Assembly (NCBI GenBank): GCA_045531955.1
Contig: JAZSFC010000011.1
Coordinates: forward strand, 15,772 to 79,771
Direction of reading: 5' to 3'
DNA: 64,000 nucleotides
Origin: Lachnospiraceae bacterium
GTDB taxonomy: Bacteria; Bacillota; Clostridia; Lachnospirales; Lachnospiraceae
The translations under genes were made by a program, and so were the position numbers. The stretch's first letter is position 1. Every line of letters starts with the position of its first letter. This document shows positions 1,584-19,369 of the stretch, one piece after another. The notes under the pieces are model-generated. The model saw nothing but the letters and a program-made list of their open reading frames with translations. It did no database searches and was not told the origin of the DNA.

Positions 1584-2393
1584 ATGACAGTTAGTATTTG
1601 TATTATTGTAATTCTTGCGGTAGTGTACACCTTTTTGATTATGCCGCGGTTTACACCAAGGCCGATGTATGAATTTAAAGGCTGGATGTATGCCCACCGG
1701 GGATTCCATGATAATAAATCCGATGCTCCGGAAAATTCTGCAAAGGCTATGAAACTTGCGGTAGAAAAGGGATATGGCATTGAATTGGACGTACAGCTTA
1801 CAAAAGACGAGAAAGTAGTAGTCTTCCATGATGCAACCTTGAAACGTGTCTGCGGAGTGGATGCACCGGTAAATTCCATGACTTATGAGGAATTGCAGCA
1901 ATTGCGTCTGTTGGATTCTGATGAAACAATACCATTGTTCTCGGAGGTGTTAGAAATCATTGACGGGAAAGTTCCTTTAATTATGGAAGTAAAGATGGTA
2001 AATACAAAAACAAGAGTATGTGAGCTGGCAAATAAAGAATTGGAAAACTATAAAGGACTTTACTGCATGGAGTCATTTCATCCGTTTGCGGTACAGTGGT
2101 ATAAAAAGAACCGGCCGGATGTGGTCCGAGGTCAGCTTTCTGCCAACTTTAAAAAAGAGGGTCAGAAGGAAGGCTTTCAGGAGTGGCTGGTGCATATGCT
2201 TTTGACAAATGTTTTGGCACGTCCGGACTTTGTGGCCTATTCCCATAAATCCGCAAATAATATCAGCAGAAGGTTAACCCGTAGGTATGGGGCAACAGCG
2301 GTGGCATGGACCATCCGTTCCCAAGCGGAGTTAGATAAAAACCGTAAGAAATTTGACCTATTTATTTTTGAAGGCTTTGTTCCGAAAAAATAA
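1584..2393 (+). CDS. glycerophosphodiester phosphodiesterase family protein
   Basis: N-terminal TM helix, then YAHRGFHD...ENS...GIELDVQLTKDEKVVVFHD, the GDPD signature. Confidence 0.85.
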   Translation: MTVSICIIVILAVVYTFLIMPRFTPRPMYEFKGWMYAHRGFHDNKSDAPENSAKAMKLAVEKGYGIELDVQLTKDEKVVVFHDATLKRVCGVDAPVNSMTYEELQQLRLLDSDETIPLFSEVLEIIDGKVPLIMEVKMVNTKTRVCELANKELENYKGLYCMESFHPFAVQWYKKNRPDVVRGQLSANFKKEGQKEGFQEWLVHMLLTNVLARPDFVAYSHKSANNISRRLTRRYGATAVAWTIRSQAELDKNRKKFDLFIFEGFVPKK

Positions 2394-2420
2394 GCAGAGT
2401 AACAGAAAGAAGGACTTTAC

Positions 2421-3548
2421 GTGGAAGAATCTATTTTACATGGCGGTGAAAAGGAACTTTTAGAATTAAAAAAGACGCTTCAGGAGAAAAACCGGTATAA
2501 TGCGGTTTTAGATTCTATGGATGCCGCAGTGGATGAACAAAAATTGAATATTGAAAAACGTAAGGCAGAAATTGAAAAAGAGATGAATTTGGAGGTTATA
2601 CGCCGCAGGGAAGCGGTGGCTGCTCCGTTTTATACAGAAATTGCAGCCTGTGAGGCAGAATTGAAAGCAGCTTTGGAGGAACGCTCCAAAAAGCGTATCG
2701 AACTGATTGCCCAGATTATGCAGGAAGAAAATGAAATGTATGAAAAGCGAAAGGAAAACCTGGAAAATCAGAGAAAACTGGTAGGACAGACCGATGGTGT
2801 TCCGGGTATATGTACCACCAGACTGTTTCTTGCGTTTTTTTGCCCGCGGAACGGCAAAGATGCCTTGATTTTGGTGATTGGTTTACTTGTTTTGTTTTTA
2901 GTTCTTCCGTTGTCAGTATACTTTGGTGTTTACGGTGGTAATAACAGATCTATGCTTACTACGATTTATCTTGTATTTATTGTCATTTTCTATACATTGT
3001 ATCTGCTTATCAACAATTTGGTCAAAGACAAGTACTTGATAGGAATCAATAAATTATTAAAAATAATGGAAGATTTGGACAAACTGGATGCAAACAAAAA
3101 GAAGCGGGAGAAAGAGTTAGAAAATCTTCCTGATTCTGCGTTAGACTTAGGAGAGTTTGATGAAGAAGTGAACCGCTTACAGGCGGTTATTGAAGAACTG
3201 ACAAAGCAGAAAGATCTAGCGGTCATGAATTTTGATTCCGACGAACGGTTACATGTTGCAATCGGCCAGGAGGTGCAGGAGAAGTTTAAACCGGAACTGG
3301 ATCATATGCGGGCTGTCTTGCAGGACAATATAGATTCTTATGAACGGATGCAGGCAGAGTATAATAAATTCCTGGATGACCGAAGAATTGAAGAACGGTA
3401 CGGAATTTTACTTCAGGCAGAGCCGGATATTTTCAGCCAGACGGTCATTGATGAGTTAATTTTCTACATTACCCACAGTGATGCGGAAAATATCAGTAAA
3501 GCAATTATTAAGAGAAAGAAAAAACTTGGACAACCTATGAGTTTATAA
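2421..3548 (+). CDS. hypothetical coiled-coil membrane protein
   Basis: 375 aa with a GTG start. Glu/Lys-rich heptad-like N- and C-terminal regions flank 2-3 hydrophobic helices (LILVIGLLVLFLVLPLSVYFGVY, LTTIYLVFIVIFYTLYLLI). No recognisable catalytic motif. Confidence 0.55.
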   Translation: MEESILHGGEKELLELKKTLQEKNRYNAVLDSMDAAVDEQKLNIEKRKAEIEKEMNLEVIRRREAVAAPFYTEIAACEAELKAALEERSKKRIELIAQIMQEENEMYEKRKENLENQRKLVGQTDGVPGICTTRLFLAFFCPRNGKDALILVIGLLVLFLVLPLSVYFGVYGGNNRSMLTTIYLVFIVIFYTLYLLINNLVKDKYLIGINKLLKIMEDLDKLDANKKKREKELENLPDSALDLGEFDEEVNRLQAVIEELTKQKDLAVMNFDSDERLHVAIGQEVQEKFKPELDHMRAVLQDNIDSYERMQAEYNKFLDDRRIEERYGILLQAEPDIFSQTVIDELIFYITHSDAENISKAIIKRKKKLGQPMSL

Positions 3549-10575: not shown

Positions 10576-11277
10576 ATGAAACTGAAAGTAGCCATCTGTG
10601 ATGATGAAGAAAAACAAAGAAAATATGTGCTGGAGCTATTGGGAGCATGGGCAAAGCTGGGACGTCATTTATTGGAAGTAAAGGAATTTCCGAACGCAGA
10701 GTCCTTTTTATTCCATTATGAAACCGAAAAAGATTTTGACATTCTTTTGCTGGACGTGGAAATGGAAAAACTTTCCGGAATTGATTTAGCAAAAGAAGTA
10801 CGCAAAGATAACAAGGCGGTGCAGATTGTGTTTATCACCGGATATTATGAGTATTTCAGTGACGGATTTGATGTATCGGCACTGCATTATCTGATAAAGC
10901 CGGTGGATGAAAGAAAACTGTATCCGGTGCTTGACCGTGCAGTAAGCAATTTAAGCTATCGTGAGCGTTCTGTACTGTTGTCAACGGCAGAGGCTGATAT
11001 CCGGGTGCCTCTGGCAGATATTTTGTATGTGGAATCTGAAAATGTATATGTGGTGGTACATACGGTAAGCGGAATCTATCGTAGCAGAATTCCGCTATCA
11101 AAATTTATATCACAACTGGATGACACCTTTTATCAGGTACACCGCTCCTTTGTAGTAGGTCTTAAATATGTGAAAAAGGTATCACGTAGTGAAGTGACAA
11201 TGCTGAACGGAGATGTGGTTCCGATACGCCGCGGTTCCTATGATGAGGTACATGCGGCATTGATACGACACTTGTAA
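10576..11277 (+). CDS. LytR/AlgR-family response regulator (receiver + LytTR DNA-binding domain)
   Basis: N-terminal receiver (VAICDDE...LLLDVEM with the phospho-acceptor Asp context), C-terminal LytTR-like region (ILYVESENVYVVVHT...FYQVHRSFVV). Confidence 0.88.
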   Translation: MKLKVAICDDEEKQRKYVLELLGAWAKLGRHLLEVKEFPNAESFLFHYETEKDFDILLLDVEMEKLSGIDLAKEVRKDNKAVQIVFITGYYEYFSDGFDVSALHYLIKPVDERKLYPVLDRAVSNLSYRERSVLLSTAEADIRVPLADILYVESENVYVVVHTVSGIYRSRIPLSKFISQLDDTFYQVHRSFVVGLKYVKKVSRSEVTMLNGDVVPIRRGSYDEVHAALIRHL

Positions 11278-11292
11278 TTACTGAGGTGACAT

Positions 11293-11937
11293 ATGATATT
11301 TGATAAACTGGTAGCCAAACGTGTGGCACAATTTGAAAATGAAATATTACAAAAGCATTATGAAGAAGTAGAAAACATGTACCAAAAAATGAGAGGATGG
11401 CGGCACGATTACCGTCATCATATCCAGGCCATGAAAGTACATGCAGCAAATAAAGAATATGACGAAATCGAGAAATATCTGGAAATGCTGGACGATGACC
11501 TGACCAATGTGGAAACGGTAATTAAGACCGGAAACCGTATGGCAGATGCCATCTTAAACAGCAAATTATCCCTTGCTGCTGCAAACCATATTGAGGTAAA
11601 AGCTGAGGCAAAGATACCGGTGTCCCTTACTGTGTCCGAACTGGACTTATGCATTATTATAGGTAACCTGATGGACAATGCCATTGATGCCTGCATGGAG
11701 CTTCCGCCGGAAAAACGGTTGATTCGTATCTACATGGAGATGAAGGGAAACTTTCTTTACTTTGCGTTGACCAATACGTCCGGTGGCAAGAAAAAGAAAA
11801 GTTTCCGCAGTACCAAAGGAGAGGGCCACGGATTTGGCATCGCCCGCATGGATGCGGTGGTAGCGAAATACGGCGGATACATTACCAGAGCCTCGGAAGA
11901 TGAAGCGTTTTCCACGGAAGTCTTGCTTCCACAATAA
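11293..11937 (+). CDS. GHKL histidine kinase lacking any membrane/sensor domain (AgrC/LytS-type catalytic core only)
   Basis: 214 aa. H-box WRHDYRHHIQ, N-box IIGNLMDNAIDA, G-box GHGFGI. No hydrophobic helices. Own RBS GAGGTGA 5 nt before ATG 11293. Only 15 nt separate it from the regulator gene, so no room for a missing N-terminal exon. Confidence 0.8.
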   Translation: MIFDKLVAKRVAQFENEILQKHYEEVENMYQKMRGWRHDYRHHIQAMKVHAANKEYDEIEKYLEMLDDDLTNVETVIKTGNRMADAILNSKLSLAAANHIEVKAEAKIPVSLTVSELDLCIIIGNLMDNAIDACMELPPEKRLIRIYMEMKGNFLYFALTNTSGGKKKKSFRSTKGEGHGFGIARMDAVVAKYGGYITRASEDEAFSTEVLLPQ

Positions 11938-11947
11938 GAATTGGAAT

Positions 11948-12010
11948 AAAAAGTGCATTTCGCATCAAATTTTCAACATTTGATATCAAAATGCACTTTT
12001 CTTTTTTTTC
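11948..12010 (+). terminator. Rho-independent terminator
   Basis: AAAAAGTGCATTT (11948-11960) pairs with AAAATGCACTTTT (11988-12000), inner ATCAAAT/ATTTGAT stem, then a T-run to 12010. Confidence 0.75.
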
Positions 12011-12065
12011 TTTGCTATAATGACATCATGAACAACGCAGATACAATAGGGAGGAGAAACAGGGT

Positions 12066-13884
12066 ATGAAAAAGGAGAAAAAGAAAAAGTATTCTAAGCT
12101 TGGCAGCCTCATATGGGCAATGAAAAAACTGGCGCGGCTGGATGCAAGCTTTGTGTTTTTTATTTTTGCGGTTGTTCCGGTTGCCGTAGCTATACCACTT
12201 TTTGCTTCGCTGTTTTCCAAAACAGTGATTGATGAAATCGGAGCAGGAAAATCCTTTGAAGAACTGGCGGTTACGGTTATGGTGTTTGTTGGAGGACTTT
12301 TTTTTGCTGACCGTGTTACAGCAGTTTATTGAAACCAGATGTCAGGGCAGAAGATATTATCCGACCACGGTGTACCAGGATGAGATGGACCGGTTTGAGT
12401 CATATGAGATGGATTTTGAAGGTTCGGAAAAGCAGACGTTTAAAGAAATCAGCGGGTATGCCTGGAGCGATGCCAGTCAGGGAAACTGTGCGATGGAATA
12501 TTTGTGGGAGGATGTATCCGGAGCACTCAAAAATCTGCTTGGTATTGTGACATTTGCGGCGTTTCTTGTGGCTTTGAATCCGGTTATTTTTCTTGTAACG
12601 GCAGTGACTTCTGCATTGACTTATCTGACCACAAGCTGGCAGCCAAAGTACTTTGAAAAGCATAAAAAAGAGTGGGAAAAAGAAGAACGGAAGAAAAGTT
12701 ATCTTCAAGGGCTTTCTGATGATTTTTCCAACGCTAAGGACATTAAGCTTTACGGCATGGAGGGCTGGATTAACAAGATGATGCGTGATTATCAGACGTA
12801 TCTTCTGATGTGGAATAAGCGATGCAGTCTCCGGGGATTTTGGGCATCCGCATTGGCAGGTGTTATGACCTTTGTGCAGAATGGCGTTGTATATTTTGTG
12901 TTAATCGGCATGCTGTTAGACGGAAAAATCAGTGTTGGTGATTTTGTATTTTTCTTTGGTCTGGCAGGCAGCATTGCCGGATATTTGCAGGGAATTATTA
13001 CTGATATTGCAAAGCTTGGCGTGCGTGCAGATAAAATTGCGTATTACCGGGATTTCTTCGGATATGAGAATCACTTTAATCATGGTGAGGGCAGTGCACT
13101 TCCAAAGGAAGCGATAAAAATTGAATTGAAGGATGTGTGGTACAAGTACGAAGGTGCAGAGGACTACACACTAAAGGGTGTAAATCTTACCATCGATGCG
13201 GGCGAAAGTCTGGCACTGGTTGGTATCAATGGTGCCGGTAAAACCACACTGGTAAAATTGATTTGCGGTATGTATGTGCCGACCAAGGGAGAAATTCTGG
13301 TAAACGGAAGACCGATTTCGGACTACAATATCGAAGAATATTATTTGATGATTTCTGCAGTATTCCAGGAAATCAGGGCAGTGGCATTTACCATATTTGA
13401 GTTTGTGGCGAGTGTGGATATGGAACGTAAAACGGCAAGGGAAGAAGCTGTGGCGGCAATGAAGGCTGCCGGTATCTGGGAGAAAATCGAGTCTCTTCCA
13501 AACGGCATGGACACCCACTTACAAAAGGGAGTGTATGAAGACGGCGTGGATTTGTCCGGTGGCGAGCTGCAGAAGTTGGTACTGGCACGGGCCATCTATA
13601 AGGACGGTTCTATTCTTATACTGGATGAACCAACGGCGGCCCTGGACCCGATTGCAGAGAATAATCTGTATCTTAGGTACCGGGAATTAACGAAAGGAAA
13701 AACTTCCGTTTACATTTCCCATCGTTTTGCTTCTACACGTTTTTGTGACCGCATTGTACTGCTGGGTGACGGCGTGGTGCAGGAGAGCGGAAGCCACGAC
13801 GAACTGATGGAGCAAAATGGTCAGTATGCGTACATGTTTGGTGTGCAGAGCAAATATTACAAGGAGGGCGAGGTAAATGCGTAA
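12066..13884 (+). pseudogene. ABC exporter, fused permease/ATPase, interrupted by a frameshift in a T8 tract
   Basis: ORF 12066-12332 encodes the first TM helices. ORF 12229-13884, one frame over, continues the TMD and carries Walker A GINGAGKTT, signature LSGGELQK and Walker B ILILDEPT. The frames meet at TTTTTTTT 12298-12305. Removing one T gives a single protein of about 605 aa, matching the 601-aa partner. Confidence 0.8.
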
Positions 13885-15682
13885 ATTCAGTACGACAAGA
13901 AAAGCACTGCGTGTTTACGCAGCATATAATCCGAACTATTTTCCGTTGCTTTTATTGCAGACGATATTCAAGAATTTGTCTCCATATTTCAATCTTTGGA
14001 TGTCGGCAGAAATTGTAACACTATTGTATGAAGCAAGTGACCGGCCGGCAATTTACAGGATGGTACTTGTTACAATCTTTGGAAACCTGTTTATCCATGT
14101 CATTGGTGCAGCACTGACCAAAAGTGTAAATACTCAGTTGGAGATTTTAAATAATAACGAAGCGGCTGCATTTAACCGCAAAACGCTGTCTCTGGATTAT
14201 GACAAACTGGAAAATCCGGACATCCGTCAGCACAGACGTAACATTAAGGAAAATGCGTATATCAATAACTATGGTGTTGTGAGCATGCGTTTGAATGTGG
14301 GGTGGCTGTTTGACTGTGCCATCAATCTGGTGTTCGCATTGGTACTTTTTGCGGAAATGGTGACACTGATTGGTGCTGCCGGATTTCAATGGTTGGGTGT
14401 GGTTTTACTGGTGTTGCTGGTTGCCATGGTGGCATTGAATATCTATTTTCAGTCGGTACATTCAGGGAAAACATCAGTTGCCTGGAATGAAGTCGGAAAA
14501 CTGATGTTAGAGGAAAACCGCTTGGGTCGGGGTTACAGCAGAAGCGGCATGGATAACCGCATTTACCGTCAACAGTTGCTGATGGATAAGCTGAACAAAA
14601 AGATGGAAAAACGCCATCGGGAGGTATTTACAAAGGTTCATTCCCTTAGTTTTAAGTATTCGTTGCCGGTAATTTTCTTTCAACGTATGTCAGAACTGGT
14701 GTCATATCTGATTATCTGCTTTTACTGTGTGCTTGGGACATTTCCGATTGGCGGTGTCATTAAGTATGTGGGGTATCTTTCGAAGGTTACAGCAAGTGTG
14801 GGAAATTTGTTCTACTGTTTCCATGAAATTGGTGCAAATGAAAAATTCCTTCAGGTATACCTGGATTATTTTGATATCAAAAATGATATGTATCAGGGAA
14901 GCCTTGCTGTAGAAAAACGGAGTGATAAGCAGTATGATGTGGAATTTAAGAACGTAAGCTTTCAGTATCCGGGAACCGAGCAGTTTGCCCTGAAAAATAT
15001 CAATCTGAAGCTGAAGGTAGGGGAACGCCTTGCGGTAGTCGGAATGAACGGCAGCGGAAAAACAACGTTTATCAAGCTGTTATGCCGTTTGTATGACCCG
15101 ACCGAAGGCGAGATTAAAATGAATGATTTCAACATCCGCAAGTACGATTACCGCCAGTATCTGGATATCTTTTCAGTTGTATTTCAGGATTATCATTTGC
15201 TTGCCATGCCGCTTGGTAACAATGTGGCATCTGCAGAAAACTGGGATGCTGAAAAAGCAGAACGATTATTGGAAGAAGTAGGATTCGGAGCTCGGTATGC
15301 CGAAATGCCAAAAAAACTGGAAACCCCGCTTTACAAAAACTTTGATGAAGACGGCGTGAATATTTCCGGTGGGGAAGCACAGAAGATTGCTTTGGCAAGA
15401 GCGCTTTACAAAGATGCTCCGTTTATCATTCTGGATGAGCCGACAGCGGCCCTGGATCCGATTGCGGAAGCAGAAATTTATGCAAAGTTTGATGAAATTG
15501 TAGGAGATAAAACCGCCATTTATATCAGCCACCGCTTATCTTCCTGCCGTTTCTGTGATAAGATTGCGGTATTTGACAAGGGCGAAATTGTACAGGTTGG
15601 AACCCACGAAGAACTGTTACAGAATGAAAAGGGTAAGTACTATGAGCTGTGGAATGCCCAGGCACAGTATTATACCACATAG
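13877..15682 (+). CDS. ABC exporter, fused permease/ATPase (heterodimer partner)
   Basis: 601 aa. TM region, then Walker A GMNGSGKTT, signature ISGGEAQK, Walker B FIILDEPT. The start overlaps the upstream stop by 8 nt. Confidence 0.9.
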   Translation: MRKFSTTRKALRVYAAYNPNYFPLLLLQTIFKNLSPYFNLWMSAEIVTLLYEASDRPAIYRMVLVTIFGNLFIHVIGAALTKSVNTQLEILNNNEAAAFNRKTLSLDYDKLENPDIRQHRRNIKENAYINNYGVVSMRLNVGWLFDCAINLVFALVLFAEMVTLIGAAGFQWLGVVLLVLLVAMVALNIYFQSVHSGKTSVAWNEVGKLMLEENRLGRGYSRSGMDNRIYRQQLLMDKLNKKMEKRHREVFTKVHSLSFKYSLPVIFFQRMSELVSYLIICFYCVLGTFPIGGVIKYVGYLSKVTASVGNLFYCFHEIGANEKFLQVYLDYFDIKNDMYQGSLAVEKRSDKQYDVEFKNVSFQYPGTEQFALKNINLKLKVGERLAVVGMNGSGKTTFIKLLCRLYDPTEGEIKMNDFNIRKYDYRQYLDIFSVVFQDYHLLAMPLGNNVASAENWDAEKAERLLEEVGFGARYAEMPKKLETPLYKNFDEDGVNISGGEAQKIALARALYKDAPFIILDEPTAALDPIAEAEIYAKFDEIVGDKTAIYISHRLSSCRFCDKIAVFDKGEIVQVGTHEELLQNEKGKYYELWNAQAQYYTT

Positions 15683-15742
15683 TTATGTGTTGTATGAACT
15701 ATATAATTTGCTGGAAGTTGATTGAAGTTTGTATAAAAACTA

Positions 15743-15771
15743 TTGATATTTTATTCTAAATCGCTTATACT
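15743..15771 (+). promoter_or_regulatory. near-consensus sigma-A promoter
   Basis: TTGATA (15743-15748), 17-bp spacer, TATACT (15766-15771). Confidence 0.65.
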
Positions 15772-15828
15772 ATTATTAGAAGAGCGTGCTCTTTCCGGTG
15801 GACTAACACCTTAATCTGAATTTTGAAT

Positions 15829-15916
15829 GGACGTAAGCGCCAGTGGTTGACAGGCAACCCAAAAACCTGTTTCGTAACGGACGTAAGCGCCGAAGGTTGA
15901 GCAGACAACCCAAAAA
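15829..15916 (+). repeat. two tandem about 50-nt direct repeats, each with a conserved hairpin
   Basis: Unit 1 from 15829: GGACGTAAGCGCC-AGT-GGTTG-ACAGG-CAACC-CAAAAA. Unit 2 from 15879: GGACGTAAGCGCC-GAA-GGTTG-AGCAGA-CAACC-CAAAAA. The 13-mer, the 5-bp stem arms and the CAAAAA tail are identical, while the linker and loop differ. Confidence 0.85.
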
Positions 15917-15929
15917 TTAGTCATTAAAA

Positions 15930-15967
15930 GGGAGTGAGCGTTACTACGGTAGCGTCTCTCCCTTTTT
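15930..15967 (+). terminator. Rho-independent terminator between the repeats and the downstream ORF
   Basis: GGGAG.GA.CGTTA pairs with TAGCG.TC.CTCCC (about 12 bp with one mismatch and one bulge), followed by TTTTT (15963-15967). Confidence 0.6.
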
Positions 15968-16036
15968 AAATTCAAGTAATCTAAAATTTCGAAAAAATCC
16001 CCCAACAAAACAAACTTATGAAATGAGGTACAAAGG

Positions 16037-16687
16037 ATGGAGTATACCCTAAAGCAGGCAGTAAGTGTAGCAATTAAGTGCGGAAGAGAGTACAAGAAAA
16101 AATTGGCTAATACAAAGATATTAGTTATATATCGTAACAGGGAAAATAATGAGATTGAATCAATAGAAATAGTGTTCCGCCCTTCTAATTACCAGCATTT
16201 GACTGGCTTGACGCTTTTTGATACGCAAGGAAAGCAGAAAAAGAATTGCTCTGTGGAGTTTTATCATAAATGTACCGGTAACAATTTGAAGGCATCAGAA
16301 ATACAATTTAAGGAAGATGGAACTACGCCACTGAAATTAGATGCGCTTCCAAGTCTTATGGATTTGACTAATATTACAAAAATTGTTGGGGACTATGATA
16401 ACTCAAAGAAATGGATGGAAGCAGATGTGATAGTGGGTGGAATAAATTTTTGCCTCGCCGTATCGGAGGACAAGGATGGAAGTTATTTTCCTCGCTCTGG
16501 GTTGTTAGAGGATATTAGAAACATTACGAGGAAATCATCACAGGTATTAGCGATTTTTCAGAAGAAATTAAGTGATAAGGGAGCTTATCAAAAGGTGCGA
16601 TATGTAGCAAAAGGGTTAGAGTTTTTGAAACTAAATTTACCATCAAAGATTTTGGAACAAATAGGTGTTCCGCGAGAAGAACTATAA
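16037..16687 (+). CDS. hypothetical protein, candidate RNase-type toxin (tentative resemblance to phage BECR-fold 'PBECR' nucleases)
   Basis: 216 aa, RBS GAGGT 7 nt upstream. N-terminal segment ...ILVIYRNRENNEIESIEIVFRPSNYQHLTGL resembles, from memory only, the F-x-x-x-N/H-F-x-HL-x-G motif of PBECR-type predicted RNases. It does not resemble the ToxN/AbiQ N-terminus (MKFY...). Confidence 0.45.
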   Translation: MEYTLKQAVSVAIKCGREYKKKLANTKILVIYRNRENNEIESIEIVFRPSNYQHLTGLTLFDTQGKQKKNCSVEFYHKCTGNNLKASEIQFKEDGTTPLKLDALPSLMDLTNITKIVGDYDNSKKWMEADVIVGGINFCLAVSEDKDGSYFPRSGLLEDIRNITRKSSQVLAIFQKKLSDKGAYQKVRYVAKGLEFLKLNLPSKILEQIGVPREEL

Positions 16688-16699
16688 GAGAATTGTTTT

Positions 16700-16740
16700 A
16701 ACCCATTACCTCTCAAAACAGGCAATGGGTTATTTATTTA
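16700..16740. terminator. bidirectional terminator between convergent genes
   Basis: AACCCATTACC (16700-16710) pairs with GGCAATGGGTT (16721-16731) with one mismatch. Both flanks are T/A-rich. Confidence 0.5.
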
Positions 16741-16966
16741 TAAAACATAACAAATTAGCAACGGGAATTTCTAATGTATCTGCGATATCAAGTAATGTGT
16801 CTAAAGAGATAGAAGTTGGCATGTTAGGAGCTTCAATATTGCTCATATGTGTGCGACTTATATTGATTTTTTCTGCTAATTGTAATTGGGTAAATCCTTT
16901 TAGTTTTCGATAATACGCGATATTTAGTCCTATTAATTTATATTCATGTTGATGTTTTTCGTTCAT
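16730..16966 (-). CDS. XRE-family helix-turn-helix protein, controller (C-protein)-like
   Basis: 78 aa. LKGFTQLQLAEKINISRTHMSNIE is a classic HTH_3 motif. ATG 16966 is preferred over the track GTG 16975 because RBS GAGGTG lies 6 nt upstream. Divergent from the methyltransferase gene. Confidence 0.8.
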   Translation of the reverse strand: MNEKHQHEYKLIGLNIAYYRKLKGFTQLQLAEKINISRTHMSNIEAPNMPTSISLDTLLDIADTLEIPVANLLCFINK

Positions 16967-17026
16967 GTTTATCACCTCAAATGTAGTTTATCCCGAATTA
17001 TCTCCTTAATAAACAATGTAAAAAGA

Positions 17027-17075
17027 TGCAAATGCAAACAGTTATATTGCAAATGCAATGTGAAAGTGATATTAT
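17027..17075 (+). promoter_or_regulatory. duplicated palindromic operator (C-box-like) overlapping the methyltransferase promoter
   Basis: TGCAAATGCAA occurs at 17027-17037 and 17048-17058, 21 bp apart, with half-sites TTGCA/TGCAA. Promoter is TTGCAA (17047-17052), 17-bp spacer, TATTAT (17070-17075). Confidence 0.55.
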
Positions 17076-17137
17076 GATAATAAGTGTTATTATGGGAAAT
17101 TGTTTTGGAGGATGTAACTGCACTAAGGAGGATAAGT

Positions 17138-19369
17138 ATGAGATCGTATGCATCGGAAATAGAGGGTCAGAGAGAATTTTATTCTAGGGTTGGAATTGAA
17201 CCCGATTTATCTCATAGTACAGATGGGGTTGATAAGGGAAATTTATACGAAAACAAACTTGATATTTCAAATATATATAAAGTGTTGCTTCAAGCAATAA
17301 AATATGCATCAAGAATTAGAATAAGAGGAGAAAAACTGCCGGCAAATATTATTTTAAATGATTTAAATAAAGAAATAGTATATATATTTAAATCTGAAAA
17401 ACTGCTCGCGGATATTGAAAAAGTATATTTTGGTGCTGCAAGCAAAAATAATGAGGAATACAATACAGATGTGAAATATCAAATGATTGATTATTCAAGT
17501 AGTAAAGGTTTACAGGAATTATTAGTAGTTGTGAATAGTGAAGAGTATGTGAGATATCATGTAGATTGTAATAATATTTTAGGCCTTTCTCAACAATTTT
17601 ATAAAATAGTTCAAGATAAAGATAAATTTATTAAAGGAGAAAATGCTGAAATAAGGAAGCCAAATATATTAGCTGACAGGATATATCCATATGAAAAGGA
17701 AGATAACATAGAATTTGAAGATATAATGGATTGTCTTAACCCCGGTCTTCTTCAAAGAGAGCAAGGGGCATATTATACACCTCCTGCTTATGTTGCAGAA
17801 ATGCATAAAATGTTATATAAGGCAATAGAAGAAGTTCCTGAGGGTATGGATTATATTATTATTGATAGATGTGCAGGAACGGGGAATCTTCAAGAAGGAT
17901 TACCTGACGAGGTGTTAAAACACTGTGTTTTGTCTACAATAGAATTTAATGAATATGCAATACTAAGTTATAAATATGGCGATAAGTGTCTTGTTGTTAT
18001 ACCAAATACAGATGCATTAGCATTTGATATTATTCCAGCAGAAAAGAACCAGCAAGGAATATGTAATGAATTTATTAGAGAAAAAGTTACTGATAAAAAC
18101 TGTGTTGTTATTCTAATGGAAAATCCACCATATAGTGAAGCTGGTAGTGGAGGTGCTCAAAACACAGGTAAAAAAGAAAATCTTTGGAAAAAAAGTTATG
18201 TTTTAAATGAAATGAAGAAAGAGGTATCCGGTGTCGCACTAAACGAGTTATCTAATTTGTTTATTTGGAGTGCATTTAAGTACTATCTTACCAAGGAAAC
18301 AGACAGCTATATTTTATTTTCACCCACAAAATATTGGCGCAATCAGGAACTGGTTAATAAGAAATTTGAGCAAGGCTTTTTATGTAACCGTAAATGGTTT
18401 CATGCAACGCAGGTTTCAGCTGTGGGATGTATATGGTGGAAAAATATTGATGACAGAAAAACAGAATCAATATTGTTACCAGCGTATGATATTATTTTAG
18501 AAAAAGCACAGAAAGCATGTAATGATATTGTGATGAAAAAGGCTCATCATAATTTTACGGAGGCTTATGATAACCGTAAGTTTTCCGATGATGAAGCAGG
18601 CATAATGTGTGATACAAACGGAACGGAATTTACCAATGATGGAAGAAAAATATCAATATTTCCTATCTATAATACAAATATAATTGCTTATATGATGGTA
18701 CATTCGTTTCTTATTGACAGGAAAAATGTATCTTTAACTAGAATGGGTTTATATAAAGGGCATGGATTCTATGTTAGAGAAGACAATTTTGTTGAGAAGT
18801 TACCATTATTTGTTGCAGCGACTTTCCCTTATGATAAATGGTATAAGACGGATATATATTCTAAGACGTATGATGGCAAAGGAAGTTATTTATCAGATGA
18901 TAAGTTTTTAATGCAGTGTCTGTTGTATACTGCGTTGACATCAAAAAATAAATGTAGATCTTTTGTGGGTTCAGACGGTAGAATATATCAGAACAGTTTA
19001 TGTTTTGATAAACAGGATACTATAGCTTGGAATGTATTTCAACAATATATGGATAAGGGGATGTCTCTTTCAGATGAAGAAAAAACGCTGCTGAAATATT
19101 GGGATGATGTAATATTTGAAGTGAGTAAAACAGCAGAATATAAAAACGCAATTATGCAATGTGAAAAAATGCGATATGGACTATTTCAAATAATGGAGGA
19201 AATAAATATAAAGATAGACAGTGAGCGATTAGACAAAAATGGGAAACCAGTAATGGTCTACAAATATTCTTCATTAAATACGGAGATAAATAAAATCAAT
19301 AGTGCTCTTAAACTGTATTATCAAGATATTCTTATTCCACAGTTGTTTAAGTATGAATTATTAAAGTAA
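17138..19369 (+). CDS. gamma-class N6-adenine DNA methyltransferase, large single-chain (possible type IIG/IIL R-M enzyme or orphan MTase)
   Basis: 743 aa from ATG 17138 (RBS AAGGAGG at 17125-17131). Motif X GAYYTPPAYV, motif I IIDRCAGTGNL, motif IV NPPY (residues 329-332, nt 18122-18133). An about 210-aa N-terminal extension carries D32-x5-E38-N-K40. An about 280-aa C-terminal region could be a target recognition domain. Confidence 0.8.
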   Translation: MRSYASEIEGQREFYSRVGIEPDLSHSTDGVDKGNLYENKLDISNIYKVLLQAIKYASRIRIRGEKLPANIILNDLNKEIVYIFKSEKLLADIEKVYFGAASKNNEEYNTDVKYQMIDYSSSKGLQELLVVVNSEEYVRYHVDCNNILGLSQQFYKIVQDKDKFIKGENAEIRKPNILADRIYPYEKEDNIEFEDIMDCLNPGLLQREQGAYYTPPAYVAEMHKMLYKAIEEVPEGMDYIIIDRCAGTGNLQEGLPDEVLKHCVLSTIEFNEYAILSYKYGDKCLVVIPNTDALAFDIIPAEKNQQGICNEFIREKVTDKNCVVILMENPPYSEAGSGGAQNTGKKENLWKKSYVLNEMKKEVSGVALNELSNLFIWSAFKYYLTKETDSYILFSPTKYWRNQELVNKKFEQGFLCNRKWFHATQVSAVGCIWWKNIDDRKTESILLPAYDIILEKAQKACNDIVMKKAHHNFTEAYDNRKFSDDEAGIMCDTNGTEFTNDGRKISIFPIYNTNIIAYMMVHSFLIDRKNVSLTRMGLYKGHGFYVREDNFVEKLPLFVAATFPYDKWYKTDIYSKTYDGKGSYLSDDKFLMQCLLYTALTSKNKCRSFVGSDGRIYQNSLCFDKQDTIAWNVFQQYMDKGMSLSDEEKTLLKYWDDVIFEVSKTAEYKNAIMQCEKMRYGLFQIMEEINIKIDSERLDKNGKPVMVYKYSSLNTEINKINSALKLYYQDILIPQLFKYELLK

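Follow-up and report, generated by a model that had tools for sequence, protein, structure and literature searches.

The stretch analyzed here, 64,000 nucleotides (nt) of a Lachnospiraceae bacterium (assembly GCA_045531955.1, contig JAZSFC010000011.1, positions 15,772 to 79,771; called the window below, with positions counted from its first letter), carries a compact cassette in which a promoter is followed by a structured RNA, an intrinsic terminator and an open reading frame (ORF) for a PBECR4-domain protein, a predicted endoribonuclease (RNase). The same RNA was found upstream of nearly every related gene, and the pair is read here, with some caution, as a toxin and its RNA antidote much as in type III toxin–antitoxin (TA) loci. 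A sequence-only reading of the window had proposed the promoter, the Rho-independent terminator, a 216-amino-acid (aa) ORF with its own ribosome-binding site and the type III TA-like order of these elements, and all of them are in place (Table 1). That order, with one promoter, RNA repeats, a Rho-independent terminator and a toxin ORF, is matched in the window and kept in about 50 homologous loci, where the promoters read TTGACA-17-TATAAT at an equal distance from the RNA. No promoter-like site was found on the plus strand of the window between 15772 and 16217. The terminator hairpin dominates the minimum-energy fold of the leader (whole-leader z = −2.95 against shuffles), its stem shows double changes in 14 of 16 pairs among 50 homologues, and essentially all PBECR4-linked loci have a terminator that separates the RNA from the ORF. 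The conserved RNA measures about 130–150 nt, and the transcript from promoter to terminator roughly 190 nt.

Two head-to-tail repeats, at 15826–15865 and 15876–15915, are spaced 50 nt apart and are 73% identical, and the 13-mer GGACGTAAGCGCC occurs once in each, at 15829–15841 and 15879–15891. The earlier description of the repeats, with this 13-mer, GGTTG/CAACC hairpins of differing loops and CAAAAA tails, was correct in all these parts, and it was the relationship between the parts that had to be redrawn. The element GGACTAACACC (15800–15810), taken for a degenerate copy of the 13-mer, is instead the loop and 3′ half of a separate hairpin, H0 (GGTG-GACTAA-CACC). Nor are the two repeats interchangeable monomers, as their loops have distinct covarying partners (s0:H2 and H1:s1) within one interlocked fold that is closed by H0:s2. 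The difference between the repeat loops is the source of each unit's own partner and not noise.

All three of the loop-to-tail pairings are intact in the window, namely TCTG:CAGA, CAGG:CCTG and GACTAA (15801–15806):TTAGTC (15917–15922). Unit 1 forms a local pseudoknot of the H type, whose first loop is a single nucleotide and whose third loop is A-rich, and it is enclosed by a tail-swapped pair in which the tail of H0 reaches the loop of H2 and the tail of H2 reaches the loop of H0, so that the 5′ and 3′ ends of the RNA are brought together. The H2-linker-s2 pattern has a single match in the whole window, where 0.01 would be expected by chance. The hairpin P0 at the predicted 5′ end shows double compensatory changes in all six of its pairs among 50 homologues, is predicted independently by RNAalifold and is likely a 5′-end stabilizer. 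A 14-nt inverted repeat in the window (15817–15830/15961–15974) was rejected as relevant, as it is not conserved in the homologues.

Table 1. Features of the cassette and its 3′ flank, in window positions.
Feature	Position	Strand	Basis
Sigma-70-type promoter; −35 TTGATA 15743–15748, 17-nt spacer, −10 TATACT 15766–15771	15743–15771	+	10/12 to consensus
P0, hairpin at predicted transcript 5′ end; core AGAG-CGTG-CTCT	15779–15794	+	fold; covariation; RNAalifold
H0, hairpin; stem GGTG/CACC, loop GACTAA 15801–15806, loop pairs with s2	15797–15810	+	covariation; RNAalifold
s0, TCTG, single-stranded; pairs with H2 loop CAGA 15902–15905	15815–15818	+	covariation
V1, unit-1 variable hairpin; contains first 13-mer GGACGTAAGCGCC	15828–15842	+	RNAalifold covariation
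Unit-1 H-type pseudoknot; H1 stem GGTTG/CAACC 15845–15849/15855–15859, loop ACAGG	15845–15869	+	covariation
Unit-1 A-rich linker, CAAAAA	15860–15865	+	
s1, CCTG; pairs with H1 loop CAGG 15851–15854	15866–15869	+	
V2, unit-2 variable hairpin; contains second 13-mer	15878–15892	+	RNAalifold covariation
Unit 2; H2 stem GGTTG/CAACC 15895–15899/15906–15910, loop AGCAGA (pairs with s0)	15895–15922	+	covariation
Unit-2 A-rich linker, CAAAAA	15911–15916	+	
s2, TTAGTC; pairs with H0 loop	15917–15922	+	
Intrinsic terminator; stem 15930–15962, T-run 15963–15967	15930–15967	+	energy fold and homologue covariation
Shine-Dalgarno GAGG, 8 nt 5′ of ATG	16025–16028	+	read from sequence
PBECR4-domain protein, 216 aa; predicted BECR-fold endoRNase, putative toxin	16037–16687	+	Pfam PF18813
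Hairpin AACCCATT...AATGGGTT, then T-rich run; between convergent PBECR4 and helix-turn-helix genes	16700–16741		

The fold was assessed in leaders, taken as the 330 nt upstream of the PBECR4 gene at each of 61 loci with one genome per species. The homologues share the order promoter, P0, H0, s0, V1, H1, linker, s1, V2, H2, linker, s2, terminator and gene, and typical sequences are GGTG-GGCTAA-CACC for H0, TCTG or TCCG for s0, GTTG-GCGGA-CAAC for H1, GTTG-GCAGA-CAAC for H2 and TTAGCC for s2. The gene follows about 30 nt past the terminator, and the spacing from s2 to the start codon is about 75–85 nt in most loci. In an alignment of 50 leaders (A2), pairs were counted in a hand-written structure that includes the three long-range helices; 97.2% of the cells pair, with both-sided changes in 31 of 48 pairs. 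None of 500 shuffles reached any of the five measures used, and when the partners were slid by 1–3 columns, pairing fell to 35–50%. Exchanges are seen in each long-range helix: in H0 loop:s2, the column pair 34/163 is GC in 37 leaders, AU in 8 and GU in 5, and 37/160 is AU in 45 and GC in 5; in s0:H2 loop, 50/145 is UA in 34 and CG in 16, with none unpaired; in H1 loop:s1, 91/107 is GC in 33 and AU in 15, and 93/105 is AU in 24 and GC in 20. The partners are also specific, as s0 pairs entirely by Watson–Crick pairs with the H2 loop in 48/50 leaders versus 4/50 for the H1 loop, and s1 does so with the H1 loop in 43/50 versus 4/50 for the H2 loop.

A second alignment (A3), of 54 sequences less than 86% identical drawn from genomes, viral contigs and metagenomes, gave 95.6% pairing with double changes in 17 of 26 pairs; s0:H2 is 100% paired, all four pairs of H1 loop:s1 covary, and H0 loop:s2 is 98–99% paired with GC/AU/GU exchanges. 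The invariance of the H2 stem in A3 is partly one of ascertainment, as the search pattern fixes that stem. RNAalifold, which was given no structure, recovered P0, H0 loop:s2, V1, H1 loop:s1, V2, H2 and the terminator, with compensatory change in 34 of 45 predicted pairs. The variable hairpins covary there as well (for example, pair 61/82 of V1 is UA in 26 and CG in 16, and pair 120/133 of V2 is GC in 24 and AU in 20), and each has about 95 distinct sequences. Among 113 distinct RNAs, a V1 hairpin of at least 4 base pairs is present in 104 and a V2 hairpin in 107. Even the near-invariant stems change in a compensatory manner in distant members, to GGAG/CTCC in locus L002 and to GTC/GAC in an Erysipelothrix phage. 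Pseudoknot folding of the RNA unit is supported by the compensatory changes in the three loop-to-tail helices. The A-rich linkers (CAAAAA / ACUAAAAU) are conserved among the RNAs, and they may equally well be structural A-minor strands as RNase cut sites.

The number and likeness of the units vary within limits. Single-unit versions exist (L081, L144 and L054), full units never exceed two, and apparent arrays of three or four were rejected, being cases of H0 counted as a unit. The two units are near-identical in L030 and L061, 73% identical in the window and usually specialized with distinct partners. No Rfam 15 model matched the RNA, whether in the window at E ≤ 10, with the entire window scanned at gathering score, or at 23 other loci; a sub-threshold match to Termite-leu was just a terminator hairpin. 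The repeats might have been a chance feature, or a recent duplication without function, next to an ordinary hypothetical gene, and it speaks for this that Tandem Repeats Finder, run on 15000–17500 at score 30, did not call them and that the copies are only 73% identical. It is refuted by an architecture that comes with compensatory changes in more than 140 distinct sequences from Lachnospiraceae, the Erysipelothrix phage and metagenomes, a recurrence that puts the pattern far beyond chance and leaves this explanation a next to negligible likelihood. A simple terminator scan of the window likewise did not list the terminator hairpin, and because the comparison of homologues shows a conserved structure, both of these misses are unimportant.

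The ORF downstream of the RNA matches the Pfam family PF18813 (PBECR4) at 102 bits (cutoff 27; E 7e-29), with residues 14–189 on profile positions 4–185 of 188. Besides PBECR4, Pfam at E ≤ 1 returned one sub-threshold match to LolA and no ToxN/AbiQ-type family, in agreement with the earlier impression that the protein is unlike ToxN/AbiQ and recalls the PBECR type. Homology to ToxN, AbiQ, CptN or TenpN was not found by Pfam at E ≤ 1, by profile search of the PDB or by Foldseek. All 111 relatives in a large protein collection carry PF18813, and these are single-domain proteins of about 215 aa, mostly from Lachnospiraceae. A profile search of 1.84 billion representatives gave 1471 clusters at E ≤ 1e-3 and 899 at E ≤ 1e-10, counted at 50% identity. 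In the protein alignment (A1), the invariant residues include Q53-H54-L55-T56-G57, E88, D159 and Q169, and S168 is nearly invariant. The AlphaFold2 (AF2) model of the protein has a mean confidence (pLDDT) of 93 and places H54 within a predicted helix, 49–56. PBECR domains are described as predicted metal-independent RNases, whose conserved residues are a His within a helix close to the N-terminus and, toward the C-terminus, a Ser/Thr (PMC5512222). The placement of H54 in a modeled helix and of S168 toward the C-terminus fits this residue pattern, with catalysis being predicted. A Foldseek search of BFVD matched two unnamed viral proteins and no others, and neither PHROGs nor a plasmid search gave a match.

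The linkage of protein and RNA is close when it is followed from the protein. The RNA, or its 3′ part where a contig ends, is present at 60 of the 61 PBECR4 genome loci. The features looked for upstream of the homologues, which were repeats, hairpins, covariation and a terminator, were thus found at these 60 loci, and the possibility that homologues never have upstream repeats fails decisively. At the sole exception, L060 in Acetivibrio ethanolgignens (1723–3450), an IS630-family transposase gene replaces the RNA upstream, and the PBECR4 gene has suffered an in-frame internal deletion by which the central third (about 50–60 residues) is lost and 171 aa are left. An intact RNA stands beside a truncated PBECR4 at 8–10 loci, and no locus reached from the protein side has an intact PBECR4 that lacks the RNA. 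Erysipelothrix phage phi1605 has a homologue of 30% identity that keeps the RNA, with its three loop-tail pairs co-changed to GCTTGA:TCAAGC, CTTG:CAAG and TTGG:CCAA. When the search was seeded from a distant PBECR4 subfamily, the RNA again turned up upstream, and its loops and tails had changed together. When all ORFs within 3 kb of the 61 PBECR4 genes were clustered, no other recurrent protein was found, nor any conserved neighbor that could be an antitoxin or immunity protein.

The phi1605 homologue (MF172979.1, 13010–13555) appears to be under-annotated, as the GenBank coding sequence spans 13085–13435 and the tblastn match 13010–13555. It lies 3′ of a type III restriction res subunit gene and 5′ of the genes for two site-specific recombinases, and the RNA upstream of it is unannotated.

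Two related loci, L014 (1890–2010) and L022 (2880–3000), have about 130 extra nt between the RNA terminator and PBECR4. This insert holds a promoter-like site flanked by LexA (Cheo)-box-like sequences, GAACAAAAGTTC and AAACATATGTTC or AGAACAAAAGTTCG and CAAACATATGTTCT; it is confined to these two of 58 loci, and the RNA is kept in both. The sequence of the insert suggests SOS-inducible toxin expression independent of the RNA promoter.

A different picture was obtained when the RNA itself was the starting point. The scan used one exact pattern, GTTG(N)GCRGACAACNNNAAAATYAG, taken from PBECR4-linked RNAs, so the proportions it yields are rough, and it returned 27 viral stretches and at least 120 metagenomic stretches. 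Counting was restricted to non-redundant loci with at least 700 nt downstream. On viral contigs, PBECR4 follows the RNA in 5 cases and 17 RNAs are orphans, 8 of these within 1.5 kb of tRNAs; on metagenome contigs, among the matches listed, 52 RNAs are followed by PBECR4 (40 full-length) and 46 are orphans. Among the matches listed, gene relics were detected at about 3–6 of the 63 orphans (three hidden Markov models, filters off), and no protein family other than PBECR4 recurs downstream of the RNA. The dependence is one-sided, in that the protein is not found intact without the RNA and the RNA is often found without the protein.

The orphans are of two sorts. Those in bacteria retain promoter, P0 and terminator, with unrelated sequence and no gene downstream; those in phages are often without P0 and terminator and are flanked directly by tRNA genes. 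Stand-alone copies in IMG/VR lie in or beside phage tRNA arrays of 2–11 tRNAs (L066, L063, L069, L072, L079/L085, L088, L067 and L082), and in L066 tRNAs adjoin the RNA directly on both sides. In L079, a ROOL RNA and a DUF3800-XI RNA are nearby, and drum RNAs (RF02958, 91–95 bits) occur within a few kb of orphan copies in four loci (L086, 1336–1446; L170, 692–804; L185, 1243–1357; L187, 3301–3412), where the two may form a recurrent island of non-coding RNAs. Contigs of metagenome-assembled genomes may be misbinned.

These stand-alone copies bring forward another explanation, namely that the RNA is an autonomous structured non-coding RNA with a cellular or phage function of its own, comparable to the drum, ROOL and DUF3800-associated RNAs, and that PBECR4 is an optional RNase for its processing, maturation or turnover, or a subunit of a ribonucleoprotein. 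About half of the listed RNA-first loci are without PBECR4 (17 of 22 viral, and 46 of 98 metagenomic among the matches listed), phage copies lie within tRNA arrays with ROOL and drum RNAs next to them, and the fixed, highly conserved architecture has hairpins of invariant sequence, as RNAs of sophisticated function do. Against this, so strict a dependence on the RNA as 60 of 61 loci imply is more than one would expect of an accessory enzyme, and an accessory gene would not be expected to decay upon RNA loss as at L060. The read-through order of promoter, RNA, terminator and gene is moreover the stoichiometry-setting layout of type III TA loci, and the protein family is classed among the RNases of conflict systems (PMC5512222). 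An autonomous RNA with an optional enzyme is therefore considered unlikely, if the most probable of the rival explanations.

The RNA could also be a leader that acts in cis, whether as a riboswitch or as an attenuator that binds a protein, and that governs how much transcription passes the terminator into PBECR4. In the PBECR4-linked loci, the RNA is always in the 5′ untranslated region on the same strand, followed by the terminator and the gene, and a pseudoknotted tandem aptamer with a terminator is characteristic of riboswitches. P0 has, in addition, a pyrimidine-rich 3′ strand that is loosely complementary to the purine-rich 5′ arm of the terminator (A2 columns 16–27 versus 168–182; window 15788–15796 versus 15930–15939), with 8 of 9 pairs in the window. 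This is the best upstream match in 31 of 50 leaders, but its register is not conserved, and it could be a low-complexity coincidence or a weak alternative pairing; a search of the leaders for an antiterminator gave nothing besides this register-inconsistent complementarity. The conserved fold ends before the terminator, and an antiterminator helix of conserved register was not found. Orphan copies have nothing downstream to regulate, with no other recurrent gene among the matches listed, and the phage copies between tRNAs often have no terminator. The RNA is tied to a single protein family and not to a metabolic regulon, and L014 and L022 keep it despite a promoter-like site past the terminator. 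A leader function is improbable on these grounds, and a preQ1-I-like or other small H-type riboswitch aptamer was ruled out by the orphan and tRNA-array copies and the single-family association. The orphans with their own promoter and terminator, the tRNA-flanked phage copies and the second promoter-like site of L014 and L022 all argue that the RNA would act in trans and not merely as a leader.

On balance, we lean toward reading the cassette as a type III-like toxin/RNA-antitoxin or toxin/RNA-immunity module with a non-ToxN toxin, in which the orphan RNAs would be portable immunity or phage decoys. This reading is drawn from the one-sided dependence, the decay of the gene on RNA loss, the lack of a protein immunity partner and the stand-alone RNA genes, and the asymmetry is what would be expected of a toxin and its antidote. 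The strong promoter would give the RNA of about 190 nt in excess, because it would mostly end at the intrinsic terminator, and PBECR4 would be made by read-through only. The RNA folds to a compact, pseudo-two-fold body, with the inner H1/s1 pseudoknot inside the tail-swapped H0:s2 and s0:H2 helices; A-rich linkers follow the short stems, and the molecule is capped by its 5′ hairpin and by that of the terminator. It would then bind PBECR4, a predicted metal-independent endoRNase, and hold it inactive, possibly as a pseudo-substrate, until the RNA was lost, because transcription was shut off or the element had gone, and the RNase was freed. Were PBECR4 to cut in the A-rich linkers, base pairing would keep the products joined in a dimer, as each unit's 5′ segment would pair with the other unit's loop. 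Stand-alone copies in bacteria would provide orphan immunity, and those in phage tRNA arrays would be decoys, as pseudo-ToxI is for ToxIN. What the comparisons show is the fold of the RNA, its genetic linkage to the protein with the asymmetry of that linkage, and the lack of a protein partner; RNase activity, toxicity, binding, any processing and the biological role are all put forward here as predictions.

Several observations weigh against a toxin with an RNA antidote. The orphans are many for an antitoxin, as 63 of the 120 non-redundant RNA-first loci, among the matches listed and within the rough proportions given by a single exact pattern, have no downstream PBECR4, and so high a fraction could mean that the RNA has its own function. 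The units are specialized, interlocked and at most two, unlike the identical, toxin-processed repeat arrays of known type III loci. Classical antitoxins are labile, whereas the 5′ hairpin and the terminator hairpin predict a stable RNA. As for the protein, the term RNase is a family-level prediction from Pfam, PADLOC and NCBIfam gave no match, and a profile search of all PDB chains gave nothing relevant, with a spurious match to green fluorescent protein only. Foldseek of the AF2 model against the PDB gave no chain at E < 0.1, with weak matches that include a TA toxin and a contact-dependent inhibition (CDI) toxin. The nuclease assignment comes from the Pfam family match, and comparison with solved structures did not confirm the fold.

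Among known systems, the closest structural analogue of one RNA unit is CptI of Eubacterium rectale, also from a Lachnospiraceae host, which folds as an H-type pseudoknot whose L1 is a single base and whose A-minor loop is extended, derives from two genomic repeats and forms a 2:2 ring with CptN (PMC4627078). The CptIN loci of Eubacterium rectale and Coprococcus resemble the cassette in having a promoter, two RNA repeats, a terminator and a toxin gene in Lachnospiraceae hosts, and in an H-type pseudoknot unit whose first loop has one nucleotide and whose long A-rich loop lies against a short stem; for the RNA and PBECR4 as well, a two-fold logic of two RNAs and two proteins is plausible. They differ in the toxin, which is PBECR4 with a predicted BECR fold here and has the ToxN/CptN Kid-like fold in CptIN. 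In addition, the PBECR4-linked units have an extra variable hairpin, many of the RNAs are orphans, and the units are non-identical and interlocked both covalently and by base pairs, with a third, partial unit (H0) closing the fold.

ToxIN of Pectobacterium (PMC3475682) likewise has a pseudoknot RNA antitoxin 5′ of an RNase toxin, the latter being predicted here, and a terminator that sets their ratio. ToxI, however, consists of 5.5 identical 36-nt repeats that ToxN cuts to monomers, in contrast to the at most two specialized units seen here. Phage PhiTE carries a pseudo-ToxI, a documented precedent for an antitoxin-like RNA in a phage (PMC3475682), and phages with such an RNA and no toxin are common to both systems. 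The phage copies described here are full-length, common and placed in tRNA arrays, and are not rare escape mutants; their decoy role is a proposal.

A non-ToxN toxin with an adjacent structured RNA that has two conserved motifs is also found in AbiF/RCd22 of Clostridioides difficile, a prophage-borne system of a Firmicute, in which, by experiment, RCd22 neutralizes AbiF in cis and in trans (bioRxiv 10.1101/2025.04.15.648962). This shows that non-ToxN toxins can have RNA antidotes. The protein there is Abi_2/HEPN-like, the RNA is a different one (the Rfam abiF motif has no match at the window RNA), and the PBECR4 module is known here from its sequence alone. Pfam PBECR4 is among the PBECR domains of phage polyvalent proteins, which also occur as solo versions in phages and in mobile elements (Iyer et al. 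2017, PMC5512222). In that paper those domains have no described partner RNA or immunity factor and a proposed offensive role as injected effectors, unlike the solo gene with its obligate upstream RNA. Drum RNAs, DUF3800-I RNAs and skipping-rope RNAs (Weinberg et al. 2017, PMC5737381) are highly conserved, end in an intrinsic terminator, are tied to one protein family and occur in Firmicutes and in phage-like regions, and drum was itself found near four orphan loci. These are unrelated in sequence and structure, and they stand in either orientation to their protein gene, whereas the PBECR4-linked RNA is always upstream on the same strand.

The surroundings of the cassette in the window are of some interest in themselves. 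The AT-rich islet noted earlier was recovered at about 15.8–19.4 kb, with a GC content of 0.29–0.38 against 0.40–0.47 in the flanks, and it starts just past an ABC transporter operon. The region upstream (10576–15682) encodes a response regulator of the LytTR type, contains an ORF that resembles a GHKL-type sensor kinase, and has two genes in which ABC transporter ATPase and permease are fused. At the closest homologous locus (L001), the module is preceded by a matching ABC transporter gene, which places the cassette at the 3′ edge of a conserved operon. Downstream, the hairpin between the convergent genes (Table 1) is probably a terminator shared by PBECR4 and an 81-aa XRE/C-protein-like helix-turn-helix (HTH) gene (16730–16975, minus strand); a sub-threshold Rfam match to CRISPR-DR66 there (16695–16746, 29 bits versus 45) was a false lead that is really this terminator-like hairpin. 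The HTH gene precedes a 761-aa ORF (17084–19369, plus strand) with the N6-adenine methyltransferase-like motifs DRCAGTGN and NPPY and a weak match to type IIG restriction-modification (R-M) enzymes (E 0.048), for which no Pfam, NCBIfam or significant PADLOC match was obtained; both lie in the same islet as PBECR4, with a GC content of about 0.30. Of the R-M-like neighbor proposed earlier, the methyltransferase-like ORF with NPPY and the HTH gene are present, and a fuller R-M module and a conserved context among homologues are not.

Literature on PBECR4 and PBECR, and on type III TA systems with BECR toxins, gave no link of a PBECR protein to an RNA in the texts, titles and abstracts searched, and the literature and databases covered contain no description of the RNA class or of its pairing with PBECR4. 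The favored reading amounts to type III-like logic in which the toxin fold and the architecture of the RNA are both new. To our knowledge, the known type III TA systems (ToxIN, CptIN and TenpIN) all use toxins of the ToxN/AbiQ fold. A BECR-fold RNase that is restrained by an RNA would mean that RNA antitoxins evolved more than once, for unrelated toxin folds, and the module would make a fourth family of the type III-like kind. Protein immunity genes normally accompany BECR toxins, and in the PBECR4 family of about 1,500 clusters at 50% identity the only conserved partner found here is the RNA, which makes it a candidate for the missing immunity factor. The topology of the RNA, a tail-swapped triple pseudoknot, is unusual, and its small size and strong covariation make it attractive for structural work and for addition to Rfam.

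A broader possibility, advanced tentatively and with less than even confidence, is that the RNA is a widespread, uncatalogued class of portable, protein-free immunity against PBECR4 RNases, paired with its target in bacteria and prophages, acting as orphan immunity elsewhere and as an anti-defense decoy in the tRNA operons of virulent phages. If this is true, an arms race would be played out through one interlocked triple-pseudoknot RNA, which would be the first RNA antidote for a BECR-fold toxin. The copies in phage tRNA arrays suggest that RNA decoys may be a common phage counter-measure in gut Firmicutes, and a decoy role would offer a possible function for part of the "ncRNA islands" that hold the ROOL and drum RNAs.

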